64,000 nt of DNA from the NCBI GenBank assembly GCA_963664225.1, contig OY760937.1:3200001-3264000 (forward strand). The letters are read 5' to 3'. Source of the DNA: Verrucomicrobiia bacterium. GTDB taxonomy: Bacteria > Verrucomicrobiota > Verrucomicrobiia > Limisphaerales > UBA1319. Shown piece after piece: positions 1 to 5,084 of this stretch; positions within the stretch are counted from its first letter, which is position 1; every line of letters begins with the position of its first letter. The translations under genes and the position numbers were made by a program. Below the pieces are notes generated by a model. It was not told where the DNA came from. It worked only from the letters and a program-made list of their open reading frames with translations, and searched no databases.

Positions 1-1930
1 GAGACGTACGCTTTTGCATACACAAGTCACTACCCTCGACCAGGTATGGATTGATATTTTTAACTTCAAGAGCCGATGGGCTATGCGGGTCACTGTCGTA
101 GTCCCATATCTTCTTTAGGGATATCTCGCCTTTGCCAAAGCCAATAATGACAACATGGACATGGGCCTTGCCTCTTGCTTCGCTTGTCCATGCAAATGTG
201 CGGTGGGCGAAGTGAATCTTTATATGATACCGCCCGAATAGTTCTCCCCAAAGAATTCCCGGTTGCTCACCTTGGCTAATACTGTTCGTGGAAACAAAGG
301 CGCATCGTGGGCATGCCGTTCCGAGGTATTCGGCCGTCTTGAAATACCAGGCGGTGACATAATCGAGCACGCCAGCCCCTTTAACCCTTCCCCAGATATG
401 ATCCATATCCTCTTTCTGAGAGGAGGTCATCAAATGTTTCCCCACAAACGGGGGATTGCCGAGAATGAAGGCACACTTTTCCGGGGCGATCACGGTTTTC
501 CAGTCGATGCGGAGGGCGTTTCCGCAAACGATGGTGGGGGATTTCTTGAGTGGCAGACGCTGGTAGAGCTGGCCGAAGGCTTCCGAGACCTCCAGATTCA
601 TGAGATGGTCCATGAGCCAGAGGGCGACTTCGGCGATGCGGGCGGGCCATTCCTGAATTTCGATGCCGAACATCTGGTCCACGTCCACCCGGGAAAGGCG
701 GTTGACGTCGTCCAGTGTCATTTCCGTTTGTTTGCCAAAAAGCTCCTTCAACAGGGCCAGTTCCAGACGCCGCAACTCGCGATAGGTGATGATGAGGAAA
801 TTTCCGCAGCCGCAGGCGGGATCGAAAAAGCGCAGGGAGCAAATCTTCTCGTGAAATTCCTCGAGGCGAACGCGGCGGCGATTGGAACGGTCCAGCCTGA
901 TGGTTTCGAATTCGGCCCAGAGGTCGTCCAGAAAGAGGGACCGGACCACCTTCAAAATATCGCGTTCCGAGGTGTAATGGCCGCCGATCTGGCGCCGGGC
1001 TCTGGGCTCCATCACCGCCTGGAATAGAGAGCCGAAGATGGCGGGGGATATCCGGGACCAATCGAAATCCGTGCATTTCAACAGGGCGTCCCGCATGGCC
1101 GAGTTGAAATCGGCAAACCCGAGGTCTTCCGAATAGAGGTCCCCGTTCACGTAGGGGAACGCGGCGAGGGTTTCGTCGAGATTCTTTTGGCGCTGCTCCG
1201 GTTTTTGGTTCAGCACGGCAAAGAGCCTGGCGAGGTGCATGCCCAGATCGGAGCCGTCCGCGCTGGTCCGGTTTTCGAGGTAGAGGCTGAAGGCTTCCCT
1301 CTCGAAGAGGCCGGTATCCTCGGCAAACAGGCAAAAGAGAATGCGGACCAGGAAGCGTTCCAAATCGTGACCGGTGTAGCCGCCGCTGGCCAAGGCGTCG
1401 TGCAAATCACCCATTTTTTCAACGGCCTTGACGTTGATGGGGTCCTGTTCCTCGTATTTGTGCTGTTTGTAACCGGGGATGAACGCGAAGTGGTGAATGT
1501 TTTTGTGGAATTCGGTCAGAGGAAACTCAATCGGCTGGTAAGTTTTCGGGTCCTCCGGCTCGAGGTCGTGGATGGCGATTCTGGCGAAGTCCGAGACGAT
1601 GACGTAGCGGGGGATTTCATTCTGCCGACCGGAATTGGCGAGTTCCTGAATGTATTGGAAGGCCTGCGAACCCGCCCGGCCAAGATCCTTCCCGGCGGAT
1701 TTGTGTTCGGCCAGGAGCATTTTCTTCCAAAAGAGATCGATGTAGCTGAAAGAGCCTTTGAGATTCTTTACGGGTTCCTCGAAGGTGGCGACCAGACGGC
1801 GCTTGAGGCCGAATACGTTGAAAAAATCATCCCAGAAACTTTTGGCTTCGGCGTCCTCCCTGGTTTCAGCCTTCCAATCCTTCGAAAAGACAATGGCACG
1901 TTGTTTTATCTCGTTCCAACTTAAAGGCAT
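1..1930 (-). CDS. MmeI-like type IIL restriction-modification enzyme (endonuclease plus adenine methyltransferase), 3' end runs off the window
   Basis: Absent from the ORF track because no stop lies in the window. Hand translation from ATG at 1930 gives MPLSWNEIKQRAIVFSKDW..., resembling the MmeI N-terminus. Also present: IDLFW..LLAEHKS nuclease-like motif, DPACGCGNFL (motif I), ILGNPPFVG (motif IV), FVSTNSI and NINPYL. Confidence 0.9.
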   Translation of the reverse strand, partial: MPLSWNEIKQRAIVFSKDWKAETREDAEAKSFWDDFFNVFGLKRRLVATFEEPVKNLKGSFSYIDLFWKKMLLAEHKSAGKDLGRAGSQAFQYIQELANSGRQNEIPRYVIVSDFARIAIHDLEPEDPKTYQPIEFPLTEFHKNIHHFAFIPGYKQHKYEEQDPINVKAVEKMGDLHDALASGGYTGHDLERFLVRILFCLFAEDTGLFEREAFSLYLENRTSADGSDLGMHLARLFAVLNQKPEQRQKNLDETLAAFPYVNGDLYSEDLGFADFNSAMRDALLKCTDFDWSRISPAIFGSLFQAVMEPRARRQIGGHYTSERDILKVVRSLFLDDLWAEFETIRLDRSNRRRVRLEEFHEKICSLRFFDPACGCGNFLIITYRELRRLELALLKELFGKQTEMTLDDVNRLSRVDVDQMFGIEIQEWPARIAEVALWLMDHLMNLEVSEAFGQLYQRLPLKKSPTIVCGNALRIDWKTVIAPEKCAFILGNPPFVGKHLMTSSQKEDMDHIWGRVKGAGVLDYVTAWYFKTAEYLGTACPRCAFVSTNSISQGEQPGILWGELFGRYHIKIHFAHRTFAWTSEARGKAHVHVVIIGFGKGEISLKKIWDYDSDPHSPSALEVKNINPYLVEGSDLCMQKRTS

Positions 1931-2093
1931 AACGGTGCTCTTATAGGGGTTAATTTGTTTTTGAGCAAAACATATTCGACCGGTCCCAAGGCGGGGAAAA
2001 TGACCGCAGAGGCAAAGAGGCATGGAGAGACCAAAAAACGGAATATAAACATGGATGGGCAGGATGAGCAGGATTGGGGGATGGGATTTGATT

Positions 2094-2191
2094 CAACGCT
2101 TACAGCGTTGGGATTTCAGGGGACGGGGACCCCGGGTAGCCCTCGGCGGGCAACCCGGGTCTGAATGATTTAATCCCTTCGGGATAATGAG
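2094..2191 (+). repeat. ~98-bp three-hairpin palindromic repeat, copy 1
   Basis: Near-identical to 2960-3059. Hairpins are CAACGCT-tac-AGCGTTG, CCCGGGTAGC...GCAACCCGGG and ATCCC-ttc-GGGAT. Confidence 0.9.
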
Positions 2192-2367
2192 ATGCAAATC
2201 CCGCGCCGCAGTGGTTGATTGGAGATTAAGCGCCACCATATCTGCCAGACTGGAACAGGTCGCGCCACGATTCGGCAATCGTCCCACCCACGCAACCCTC
2301 ATTGGAATGCAATCATCCAACCCCGATCAACCAACCTCAACCGCATTCCGTAATCGCCCCATCCGCG

Positions 2368-2470
2368 CAATCCTGTAGGGATTGCAATCACTCAGCCCCG
2401 GGTCGCGAGGAACGAGCCACCCGGGGTCATCGTCCACCCTCCATAATTTCCCCAACGCTGTAGGCGTTGA
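2368..2470 (-). repeat. Diverged inverted copy of the three-hairpin repeat
   Basis: Same three hairpins in reverse order: CAATCC-tgtag-GGATTG, CCCCGGGT...ACCCGGGG, CAACGC-tgtag-GCGTTG. Lies just upstream of the transposase. Confidence 0.8.
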
Positions 2471-2501
2471 AGCAAATTCGTGAATCGTAAATCCTCGGAG
2501 C

Positions 2502-2957
2502 ATGCCTAAATCCCTTGCAAAGATTCTCGTGCATACGGTTTTCTCAACCAAAGACCGCCGCCCATTTCTTCGTGACAAATTGCTCCGGCAGGAACTGCAT
2601 TGTTACCTTGGAGGCATCCTGGCCCAACTCGAATGCCAGCCCATCCTTTTTGGCGGCGCGGAAGACCATGTGCATCTGCTCTGCGCCTTGTCGCGCACCT
2701 GCGAGGCGTCCGCGATGGTCAGGGAAGTCAAACGCGGATCAACGTTGTGGTTGAAATCAAAAGATCAGACCCTGAACGATTTTTCATGGCAAAACGGCTA
2801 CGGCATTTTTTCAATCGGTTTTTCACAAATTGCAGCAGCGCGCAAATACATCACAGAACAGGAGTGCCATCATCGCAAAATCTCCTTTCAAGACGAATAC
2901 CGCGAATTCTTAAAACGATACGAAATTGAATGGGACGAACGCCATGTATGGGACTGA
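2502..2957 (+). CDS. tnpA: IS200/IS605-family HUH (Y1) transposase, possibly REP-associated
   Basis: 151 aa with HTVFSTK, HUH motif DHVHLL, WQNGY and catalytic YxxxQ (YITEQ). No tnpB nearby. Confidence 0.9.
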   Translation: MPKSLAKILVHTVFSTKDRRPFLRDKLLRQELHCYLGGILAQLECQPILFGGAEDHVHLLCALSRTCEASAMVREVKRGSTLWLKSKDQTLNDFSWQNGYGIFSIGFSQIAAARKYITEQECHHRKISFQDEYREFLKRYEIEWDERHVWD

Positions 2958-2959
2958 TC

Positions 2960-3059
2960 CAACTCCTACAGCGTTGGGATTTCAGGGGGGGCGGGGACCC
3001 CGGGTAGCCCTCGGCGGGCAACCCGGGTCTGAATGATTTAATCCCTTCGGGATAATGAG
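2960..3059 (+). repeat. ~100-bp three-hairpin palindromic repeat, copy 2
   Basis: Direct repeat of 2094-2191 starting 3 bp after the tnpA stop. Degenerate partial copies continue to ~3125. Confidence 0.9.
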
Positions 3060-3217
3060 GTGCCAACCTGGGCAGCGCTTTCCCCGGCAACCTGGGCTGA
3101 ATGATTGCAGTCCGTTCCGGGTTGCACGGAGGATGGGCGGTCACGTGCAGTGCAGGGGGAATTTTGAATTTTGAAGAGATGTCCGACTTTAAATGCCTCT
3201 GCCATACGATGTCCGAA

Positions 3218-3273
3218 CCGGCTGAAGCCGGGACTCCATGCCCCGGAACGCCGGGTCGGGGGACCCGGCCTAC
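3218..3273 (-). repeat. Two REP-like hairpins (GGAG-tagged and GTAG-tagged)
   Basis: Minus strand reads GTAGGCCGGGTCCCCCGACCCGGCG (3249-3273) and GGAGTCCCGGCTTCAGCCGG (3218-3237). Confidence 0.65.
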
Positions 3274-3517
3274 AAGCTGATGCGCCTGAATATGTTGTAC
3301 GCCACGCGCCTTCGTGCGGCATTATATAATGCTGTGCCGCAGGGTTTTATAGAATGGCTGTATGGAAGGATCAAAGGCACAGAGGCGAATGGAAAGCCGC
3401 AGTTGAGGCAAGGACGGTGATTCAAACCGGTGAATGGGTGTGAATAAACGCCTATCATGAGAAAATTCGGGGAAATCCCAAAATATTCCATTTTTCTTTC
3501 AAAATTTGCATAAAAAA

Positions 3518-3542
3518 TGAACTTTTCGCCCGCAGGTTCGTC
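3518..3542 (+). promoter_or_regulatory. Putative ECF sigma promoter of sRNA unit 1
   Basis: TGAAC...CGTC with AAC-N17-GTC spacing, repeated upstream of units 2 and 3. Confidence 0.5.
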
Positions 3543-3549
3543 GAACGTG

Positions 3550-3681
3550 TGGTAATTATACGGGGTATAGGTTGTTTAGAACCGGCGGTTGCTCCAACAA
3601 CAGTCGGGATTAGACATTGGTTAACGGAACAGGTTGTTTGGGTTAAGCGGGCGTCGCAAGGCGTCCGCTTTCCTTTTTTTT
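3550..3681 (+). ncRNA. Putative sRNA, sibling 1
   Basis: 5' hairpin TGTTTAG/TTAGACA enclosing CCGGC/GTCGG and GTTG/CAAC; core GGTTAACGGAACAGGTTGTTTGGGTT at 3619; terminator 3645-3681. The 5' end is estimated. Confidence 0.65.
3645..3681 (+). terminator. Intrinsic terminator
   Basis: AAGCGGGCGTC-gcaa-GGCGTCCGCTT followed by a T-rich tract. Confidence 0.85.
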
Positions 3682-3698
3682 CAGGGGTAAAAGATTTT

Positions 3699-3725
3699 TG
3701 TAACCGAACTGGCTGTGTCGTGTCA
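3699..3725 (+). promoter_or_regulatory. Putative ECF sigma promoter of sRNA unit 2
   Basis: TGTAAC-N17-GTCA. Confidence 0.55.
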
Positions 3726-3732
3726 CTTATTA

Positions 3733-3839
3733 TGGAATGTTTGGTGCTGGCTGTCCTTGTGACATCTGGTTGCAAGCATTGGTTAACGGAACGGGTTGTT
3801 AAGGCTGAGCGGACGTCTTGTGGCGTCCGCTCTTTTTTT
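3733..3839 (+). ncRNA. Putative sRNA, sibling 2
   Basis: 5' hairpin AATGTTTG/CAAGCATT with apical TGTC/GACA; core GGTTAACGGAACGGGTTGTT at 3781; terminator 3807-3839. Confidence 0.65.
3807..3839 (+). terminator. Intrinsic terminator
   Basis: GAGCGGACGTC-ttgt-GGCGTCCGCTC followed by a T run. Confidence 0.85.
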
Positions 3840-3850
3840 GGTGTGGGATT

Positions 3851-3878
3851 TGTAACCTGTCAGGGGGTTGGTGCGTCA
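3851..3878 (+). promoter_or_regulatory. Putative ECF sigma promoter of sRNA unit 3
   Basis: TGTAAC-N18-GTCA. Confidence 0.55.
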
Positions 3879-3885
3879 AAGAAGG

Positions 3886-4010
3886 GTGTACAGTGGTTGT
3901 ACAGGGCAGTTTTCTGCCGGCAGTCCAATTATGACGGCCGGGATTAAACAGAGGTTAACGGAACAGGTTGTTTGGGTTGAGCGGACGTCGCAAGGCGTCC
4001 GCTTTTTTTT
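3886..4010 (+). ncRNA. Putative sRNA, sibling 3
   Basis: 5' hairpin with CCGGC/GCCGG and GTC/GAC, followed by GGGATTAAACA as in unit 1; core at 3953; terminator 3979-4010. Confidence 0.65.
3979..4010 (+). terminator. Intrinsic terminator
   Basis: GAGCGGACGTC-gcaa-GGCGTCCGCTT followed by a T run. Confidence 0.85.
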
Positions 4011-4051
4011 GAGGTTGAACCCCGCCCGAACCTGCCACACACTGGACCCAT

Positions 4052-4774
4052 ATGGGCGCACAATGGAAACAAGCCGGACGTGAAGCAAATGCGCAGAAGC
4101 GCGGCCAGATGGTCGTGAAGCTCGTGCGCGAAATTGTCGTGGCCGCCAAATTGGGCGGCGCGGATCCTGAGACCAACGCGCGCCTGGCGGCGGCCCTGGA
4201 AAAGGCCCGCAAGAGTTCGGTGACTCGGGACACCATCGAACGCGCCATTAAAAAAGGGTCGGGGCAGACGGATGAAAAGGTGGTTTACGAGCTGGTCACT
4301 TACGAGGGCTTTGGCCCGCACAAGGTGCCCGTGGTTGTGGAATGCCTGACCGATAACCGGAACCGCACCGCGCCGGAGATTCGTAATTTGTTCAAGGGCG
4401 GTTCCATGGGCCAGCCCGGCAGTGTCGCCTTTTTCTTTAATCACACCGGTGTGATTGAGGGGACGCACACCGATACCACCCGAGACGCGGAGACGGACGC
4501 CATCGAGGCGGGCGCGCAGGAGGTGGAGCCATTGGAGGCCGATGAAGTGCCCGAAGGCCAGAAGGGCGCGCGGTTCATGGTGGATGCGCGCGAACTGGAC
4601 CATGTGACCAAGGCCCTGAAGGCGGCGGGGTGGAAGATTCTGGCGTCGGAAATCCGCTATGTGGCCAAGAGTTTCCCCGAGCTTTCTGAATCGGCGCACA
4701 AGGAAGTCGCCGCGTTTTTGAATGGATTGGACGATCACGACGACGTTCACCGGGTCTATGCCGCGATGCGGTAG
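4052..4774 (+). CDS. yebC: YebC/PmpR (TACO1) family protein
   Basis: GGADPETNARL, YEGFGP, VECLTDNRNRT and DDHDDVHRVY motifs; 240 aa. Confidence 0.95.
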   Translation: MGAQWKQAGREANAQKRGQMVVKLVREIVVAAKLGGADPETNARLAAALEKARKSSVTRDTIERAIKKGSGQTDEKVVYELVTYEGFGPHKVPVVVECLTDNRNRTAPEIRNLFKGGSMGQPGSVAFFFNHTGVIEGTHTDTTRDAETDAIEAGAQEVEPLEADEVPEGQKGARFMVDARELDHVTKALKAAGWKILASEIRYVAKSFPELSESAHKEVAAFLNGLDDHDDVHRVYAAMR

Positions 4775-5084
4775 GTTTTGTCCCTGCTGGGAAAAGTGGG
4801 TTTGAGGTCGGTGGACTGTTCCCCTCGATCCGGTCGATCGGGCCGGGGCTGCGCGTGATGCCGCGGTCGCTTCGTTTCCAATGAGTTAAATCCCCGGACT
4901 CAACATGCAATAATGCGGGAGGCCCCTCCCCCCAACAAGGGGCGCGTTACATTAAGTTTGATAATGCGCCGACAGCGGTTATAAATGCCGGTCATAAGAC
5001 CGGGTTTAAAACTGTGTGCGCTGGCATTGCATTCAGGATTCCTGATCGTTCAGGAATGGTTCGCCCGGAACAGGATTAGTAATT

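Follow-up and report, generated by a model that had tools for sequence, protein, structure and literature searches.

The three small non-coding units that stand in tandem in the genome of a Verrucomicrobiia bacterium (Limisphaerales; assembly GCA_963664225.1, contig OY760937.1) are, on balance, probably paralogues of a trans-acting small RNA (sRNA) gene that is found across the order, and each unit is, from its sequence organization, very probably a stand-alone sRNA gene. Our best reading is that these siblings would act by base pairing, independently of Hfq, and would feed two ECF stress responses. Judging from the comparison with relatives, this locus appears to be new in its triplication, in its remodelled core and in having two copies that switched to a second ECF motif, and it yields a candidate sigma factor for each motif.

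Results

Three units with a common core

The window, that is, the whole stretch of DNA that was analysed (64,000 nucleotides), contains GGTTAACGGAAC at 3619, 3781 and 3953, as the initial annotation had reported, and no other match with up to one mismatch. Shuffled sequences held 0.2 matches on average and none of 100 reached three. When the source genome was scanned (G000; 5.78 Mb, a single contig, 96% complete), the 20-nt core, with up to three mismatches, was found at these three sites only. Between units, identity is 43-57% in the 5' domains, 95-100% in the 20-nt core and 67-89% in the tail and terminator. The core of unit 1 ends in the intact family tail GGTTGTTTGGGTT, and that of unit 2 has diverged to GGTTGTTAAGGCT, with four positions altered that the family keeps at 86-90%. 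Logan contigs from three of four public runs (two samples, possibly including the source sample) cover 3221-4800 with no differences, and the triplet is therefore not an artefact of this assembly. The features are collected in Table 1.

Table 1. Features of the sRNA locus (positions in the window) and candidate sigma factor genes (positions in the source genome, G000)
Feature	Position	Strand	Description
Unit 1 promoter	3510..3542	+	A-rich upstream tract; -35 TGAAC (3518-3522); 16-nt spacer; -10 CGTC (3539-3542)
sRNA unit 1	3550..3682	+	~130 nt; start inferred from promoter; 5' hairpin 3573-3616; single-stranded core 3619-3644; terminator hairpin 3645-3670 and U tract
Lineage-specific core 5' half	3619..3631	+	GGTTAACGGAAC-R; also at 3781 and 3953; stands in place of family GGAGGTTnnGTTT
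Family-conserved G/U-rich element, putative seed	3632..3644	+	directly 5' of terminator; also 3966-3978; diverged at 3794-3806
Unit 2 promoter	3698..3725	+	-35 TTGTAACC, -10 TGTCA; ECF-B type
sRNA unit 2	3732..3839	+	~108 nt; hairpin 3736-3780; core 3781-3806; terminator 3807-3832 and U tract
Unit 3 promoter	3850..3878	+	-35 TTGTAACC, -10 CGTCA; ECF-B type
sRNA unit 3	3885..4010	+	~126 nt; hairpins 3887-3903 and about 3909-3950; core 3953-3978 (identical to unit 1 core); terminator 3979-4004 and U tract
ECF-A gene	G000 612797-613330		adjoins hisB; followed by a weakly zf-HC2-like anti-sigma candidate
ECF-B1 gene	G000 2128692-2129285		B motif just upstream
ECF-B2 gene (ECF-B1 paralogue)	G000 2102654-2103244		

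The hairpin and T tract that had been noticed at the end of each unit were detected as terminators on the plus strand in all three (3645-3670, 3807-3832 and 3979-4004). Likewise, the statement that no open reading frame spans the units held, as no plus-strand frame common to the three was found; a small-ORF reading was discarded on this ground and because the frame of the post-core bases varies among homologues. With a terminator and a predicted ECF-type promoter of its own for each unit, the proposal of three stand-alone non-coding units is upheld. The 5' hairpins fared less evenly: their arms appear in the minimum free energy folds where the initial annotation had placed them (3573/3610, 3736/3773 and 3917/3937), and the folding z-scores of whole units, terminator included, are -2.96, -3.68 and -3.25 (units 1, 2 and 3), whereas those of the 5' domains alone are weak (-0.8, 0.0 and -1.8), and the hairpins turned out to be dispensable in the family (see below).

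Just upstream of the trio, palindromic repeats (window 2040-2480 and 2880-3320; up to 75 genomic copies) flank an IS200-family tnpA (2502-2957) in a RAYT/REP-like arrangement. Upstream of the repeats lies an MmeI-type restriction-modification gene (2-1930, minus strand), which is unlinked to the sRNA family.

An order-wide, single-copy family

BLAST of the region against 60 relatives recovered the 3' part of the units, in homologous loci that show the same succession of a promoter, variable hairpins, a G/U tract and a terminator. The pattern GGTTGTTTGGGTT-N0-8-GCGGRC occurs in 53 of 301 genomes of the order, versus 4 for the reversed control. We made a covariance model (R1) of the 3' module from 34 sequences. 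In 150 genomes of the order, 68 sites scored 40 bits or more with this model, three of them in the source genome and one in each of 65 others; this search of relatives, proposed at the outset together with a covariation check, thus found one strong copy in 65 of the 149 other genomes. The triplet was found in the source genome alone and the family is single-copy elsewhere. Units 1, 2 and 3 score 60.5, 49.8 and 65.8 bits, with a model built from 34 of the sequences that it scores, unit 1 among them. Among 149 genomes from other orders of the phylum, no hit was strong (best 31.6 bits, mostly terminator-only matches), and the family pattern had no match in viral contigs.

The pool of homologous loci comprises 94 non-self loci, at least one of which is counted twice and a few of which are weak hits that are possibly non-homologous. 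Per position, GTTTGGTTGTTTGGGTT is conserved at 74-99% in these loci, and the G/U element corresponding to 3632..3644 at 78-99%. The family-wide seed is GTTTGGTTGTTTGGGTT, and not GGTTAACGGAAC. The initial annotation had taken the invariant GGTTAACGGAAC for the kept seed; it is private to the source genome, and it is in the neighbouring G/U tract that the family is conserved. Indeed, AACGGAAC is present in 0 of the 94 loci and the 5' half of the trio's core was not found in nine other genomes of the family. Exact matches to the core of the trio were obtained at 21 loci in GTDB genomes and 5 in metagenomes; these were set aside, being at chance level and none having the terminator architecture. 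The conservation across the 94 loci therefore indicates that the trio has retained GGTTGTT from the family tract, with the full tail still present in units 1 and 3, and that the 5' half is its own.

In the terminator, 99.4% of cells are paired and five of ten pairs have two-sided changes; none of 500 shuffles was as high, relatedness being uncontrolled in this comparison, and the covariation check was therefore positive as well. Furthermore, among the 84 homologous loci with a promoter there are 13 short forms, in which the -10 box is at most 35 nt from the seed. These minimal natural forms, of roughly 55-75 nt, consist of the G/U tract and the terminator, which implies that both the 5' hairpins and an AGGAGG block are dispensable.

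There is no fixed downstream gene in the family and the neighbours vary. At 33 of 54 distinct loci, the sRNA is flanked by a divergent beta-CASP nuclease gene, whose orthologue in the source genome lies 28 kb before the trio. Upstream of this orthologue, where relatives bear the sRNA, the source genome has a stretch (G000:C1:3175530-3175900; the trio is 28 kb off) that presumably resembles the 5' part of a group II intron. We rejected a yebC riboswitch or attenuator, the element being present in 0 of 29 yebC loci, and also a linkage to yebC, which lies within 1.5 kb in 0 of 69 sRNA loci (54 distinct); on both counts the family is not cis to yebC.

No named family had been recognised in the initial annotation, and the Rfam searches gave no match. 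With Rfam 15, the best score in window 3000-4600 was 23.4 bits and all scores were below the gathering threshold; 12 loci (7 of them homologues) returned tRNAs only, and 10 further homologous loci nothing at E<=0.1. One related observation was made elsewhere in the source genome: the 3' end of an ftsZ-like gene (G000:C1:4148361-4148435, plus strand) carries GGTTGGTTTGGTTTGTTTGGGTT directly before a terminator. This is close to the canonical family seed (27 bits), and the locus is possibly a 3'-UTR-derived sibling.

Two promoter types and their candidate sigma factors

The spacer between AAC and NGTC is 16-17 nt in all three unit promoters. The ECF-type promoter initially ascribed to each unit is therefore present, but its type differs between unit 1 and units 2 and 3, and the single ECF regulon that had been proposed for the trio was not sustained. 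The A motif (TGAAN-N16/18-NGTS) precedes 84 of the 94 homologous loci, with TGAACA as the -35 variant in 50 of the 84 and TGAATA, the exact one of ECF-A, in 7; the B motif (GTAAC-N16/17-NGTC) precedes 0 of the 94. Unit 1 has the A motif and, by this sequence comparison, is the copy that retains the ancestral family promoter. Units 2 and 3 have the B motif in the form TTGTAACC-N15/16-YGTC, of which there are only 5 matches in the source genome, 2 of them in the trio.

ECF-A is present in 144 of 150 genomes. Its self-promoter, TGAATA-N16/18-CGTC, was found at 29 of 33 loci, versus 1 of 33 at wrong spacing, and the relaxed A motif lies 5' of 37 source-genome genes, versus 13 and 17 at wrong spacings. 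By itself, TGAAC-N16/18-CGTC shows no enrichment 5' of genes in the source genome (7 versus 3 and 11 at wrong spacings), and a scan of this genome with a PWM from the sRNA promoters gave no clear regulon. We consider it likely from these motifs that unit 1 and the ancestral gene are transcribed by ECF-A; as the commonest sRNA -35, TGAACA (50/84), is one base off the TGAATA of ECF-A, another sigma factor may be the one involved. Two other genes (G000 5009685 and 4242485) were dropped as candidates for the ancestral promoter, having no consistent A motif upstream in five relatives. The RpoS-like gene, considered as a candidate as well, has this motif in some relatives. A sigma cascade is hinted at by the RpoS-like group 2 sigma factor genes of some relatives (L183, L321, L326, L327), which follow an A-type ECF motif.

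For ECF-B1, the B motif was found as self-promoter at 24 of 30 best orthologue loci, and in 13 genomes it adjoins an ECF-B2 gene of the same orientation. The raw count of the B motif in 61 genomes was 150, versus 123 in the reversed control. Of the 51 genomes in which it had hits, 30 were examined at their first hit, with gene starts and signal peptides taken from a custom heuristic caller. A signal-peptide gene lies within 130 nt at 15 of these 30 loci (opposite strand, 2/30; random, 3%) and at 2 of 25 strict A-motif loci. Five of the 30 precede a conserved anti-sigma-like gene, the anti-sigma orthologue; in the source genome the motif also precedes a Spy/CpxP-like periplasmic gene (below the cut-off) and a Porin_5 gene. 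Transcription of units 2 and 3 by ECF-B is, on this evidence, quite probable.

Both ECF-B operons run from the ECF gene to a small membrane protein and then to a periplasmic helical protein with weak LTXXQ/CpxP similarity. These ECF/anti-sigma-like/Spy-CpxP-like operons (G000:C1:2101841-2103244 and 2124203-2129285; L298, L299, L302-L304) have a common GTAACC-N16/17-NGTC promoter. The former has an internal promoter copy just before the anti-sigma gene and the latter runs on into MacAB-type efflux genes. The layout matches that of ECF111-type operons, which consist of an ECF, a one-TM anti-sigma factor and an LTXXQ/heavy-metal periplasmic protein in the covered entries of the PMC7826278 supplement, the third gene here having weak LTXXQ or CpxP hits. 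The promoter reported for ECF111 is TTGAACCT/GTCTAAA and that of ECF-B has TGTAACC, and Verrucomicrobia are not listed for ECF111 in the parts of PMC7826278 covered. The main text of that source, as far as covered, has no Verrucomicrobia entry; its supplement was covered by search term only, and a matching ECF group may be among its other entries.

Other elements stand behind similar promoters. A second non-coding element of ~170 nt (L178:1530-1715, plus strand, and the matching stretch of L185, minus strand) follows the same TTTGAACA...CGTCT promoter; the two copies are ~82% alike in genomes of two different families, end in a hairpin and contain complementary blocks that suggest nested pseudoknots. 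This element was not found in the source genome, and 6S RNA was rejected as its identity for want of an Rfam match. The strict form TTTGAACA...CGTCTGA also occurs 5' of homologous transposase genes in three genomes (L186, L191, L195), which we take from their features to be IS66-like.

Target searches and RNA-binding proteins

With accessibility-corrected helices, the top 100 predicted targets of the family seed included 21 signal-peptide genes against a mean of 18 in 14 shuffles, one of which is identical to the seed; the core of unit 1 gave 19 among its top targets against 15 +/- 4. Plain duplex energy, without accessibility, enriched no target class. The 13-nt complement before ATG gave 22 non-self hits in 251 genomes against 21 control hits. 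Among k-mer complements compared with permutations, AACCCAAA reached 13 against a permutation mean of 5.7, as one of ~120 k-mers tested, and the controls were unbeaten. Target enrichment showed nothing beyond what base composition gives. When the three units are taken together, the best individual hit is a helix of 15 bp that covers the start codon of G000 4342543-4343304 (-19.3 kcal/mol; shuffled seeds reach -22.6), whose product we take to be RsmE-like from its sequence features.

Shine-Dalgarno motifs are rare in the source genome (155 of 3817 genes, versus 86 in a control window). A/C-rich hexamers mark the 30 nt before start codons, with AAACAA on top, and upstream sequence of this A/C-rich kind is complementary to the G/U tract. 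Searches of this 96%-complete, single-contig genome gave 0 matches for hfq and proQ, and csrA was not found. Four RRM genes are present; RRM proteins of Bacteroides reportedly bind RNA broadly.

Discussion

The features expected of an ECF-dependent, trans-acting sRNA are found together in this family: a conserved ECF-type promoter 5' of the RNA (84 of 94 loci and the three units), an intrinsic terminator, no conserved ORF and no fixed downstream gene. Based on our results, we propose that the ancestral sRNA gene would have been transcribed by ECF-A, an input that unit 1 would keep, and that, after duplication, units 2 and 3 would have come under ECF-B1 and/or its paralogue ECF-B2. Under stress, the G/U-rich strand could reduce translation by pairing with translation-initiation regions that are A/C-rich, with no need for Hfq, ProQ or CsrA, and the remodelled 5' half of the core, with the altered tail of unit 2, could shift the target set. 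Action by pairing with mRNA is likely, in our analysis; that the targets would be mainly envelope mRNAs is conceivable but doubtful.

Other explanations have to be weighed against this pairing model with two sigma inputs. One ECF sigma factor could read all three promoters, which would make the trio a dosage amplification within a single regulon. The two motifs do have AAC, a 16-17-nt spacer and NGTC in common, and the three units retain 95-100% identity in the 20-nt core. There is also a precedent in ECF235/YlaC, with TGTAAC predicted and TTGAAC as the experimentally used promoter (covered entries of the PMC7826278 supplement), from which one sigma factor might read both motifs. We nevertheless find this improbable, given how cleanly the motifs are partitioned: ECF-A loci have the A motif in 29 of 33 cases and the B motif once, ECF-B1 loci the B motif in 24 of 30 and the A motif once, and the homologous sRNA loci the A motif in 84 cases and the B motif in none. 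The downstream genes differ as well, with a signal-peptide gene at 15 of 30 B-motif loci versus 2 of 25 strict A-motif loci. It is also unlikely that the G/U single strand serves as a decoy that titrates an RNA-binding protein (an RRM protein, bS1 or a cold-shock protein). The low complexity of the seed, the four RRM genes and the lack of a target set above shuffles would fit with a decoy, but each RNA has a single tract rather than motifs repeated in loops, no CsrA is found in the genome, and the minimal form of seed plus terminator is like that of base-pairing sRNAs such as RybB. Moreover, three diverged copies have retained a remodelled 12-nt stretch, which fits with a gain of new pairing partners. 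A CsrB/RsmZ-type decoy in particular was rejected, with no CsrA, one GGA per core and no repeated loops.

The AGGAGGT that lies just 5' of the G/U tract in many long homologues suggests a sponge, whose main partners would be other non-coding RNAs (a CCUCC-type sRNA, for instance) bound by way of the AGGAGG block; as this block is only 46-66% conserved and is missing from the minimal forms and from units 1 and 2, we hold a sponge to be very improbable. We give as little weight to the view that units 2 and/or 3 are decaying duplicates, or that the trio, having no function of its own, is a repeat by-product of the palindromic repeats and the IS200-type transposase nearby. This view could draw on the restriction of the triplet to the source genome, on the adjoining IS200-family tnpA with repeats that reach 75 genomic copies, and on the changes in unit 2 at 4 positions that are 86-90% conserved in the family. 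However, the units are not repeated elsewhere in the genome, the palindromic repeats stop near 3320, the core is conserved far above its flanks, two diverged copies have a near-perfect promoter of which there are 5 genome-wide, and the terminators are intact in all units. Finally, a type III antitoxin or CRISPR-like array was discarded, since each unit has its own promoter and terminator, the homologues are single and the neighbours are tnpA, MmeI-like and yebC; so was an Hfq- or ProQ-dependent sRNA, neither gene being found in the genome.

Among known systems, GcvB also has a G/U-rich seed, and, like GcvB, the G/U tract here could mask A/C-rich upstream regions. GcvB silences ACA translation enhancers (PMC3879156, in the part covered); there is no homology between the two, and GcvB is Hfq-dependent. 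The units are like the enterobacterial sigma-E sRNAs MicA, RybB and MicL, and like FoxI/FoxJ of Fusobacterium (PMC11005410, in the sections covered), in being stand-alone sRNAs with a conserved ECF promoter and as the proposed non-coding arm of a stress response; as in Fusobacterium, the host is without Hfq, ProQ and CsrA. Unlike either, they have no sequence or Rfam match and the siblings carry two distinct ECF motifs; the seed is G/U-rich here and a C stretch in FoxI/FoxJ (same sections of PMC11005410). The repression of outer-membrane proteins seen with sigma-E-type sRNAs is unsupported here by the target scans. In our analysis, the trio would resemble both groups in action and is a member of neither.

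As sibling sRNAs, the units are comparable to OmrA/OmrB, PrrF1/PrrF2 and AbcR1/AbcR2, which are also tandem duplicates with a conserved core and terminator and a diverged body. The siblings RfrA/RfrB have differential RpoS input, according to the covered part of PMC4211561, and the inputs of the trio may differ in a similar way. Unlike these siblings, there are three copies in one genome of an otherwise single-copy family, two of them moved to another ECF promoter type, and their common core is remodelled as compared to all 94 homologous loci. Our literature search, whose coverage left out many subscription papers and the motif-survey supplements, found no Verrucomicrobia sRNA/ECF/RNA-motif description.

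In conclusion, our results describe a conserved sRNA family of a large bacterial order and, for the same order, part of an envelope-type regulon and two predicted ECF motifs, for which candidate sigma factors are proposed. Tentatively, and as a possible rather than a probable reading, the locus could record a rewiring of the stress network, in which the seed of a conserved, ECF-A-driven sRNA was remodelled, the sRNA triplicated and two copies recruited to a second, envelope-type ECF regulon; the new seed would then answer to two sigma factors, and the family would cover A/C-rich initiation regions without Hfq in a Shine-Dalgarno-poor bacterium. The trio represents a compact natural test of how sibling sRNAs may gain inputs, by promoter swap, and outputs, by seed change, and also of how an sRNA may work without Hfq or ProQ and with little use of Shine-Dalgarno sequences.
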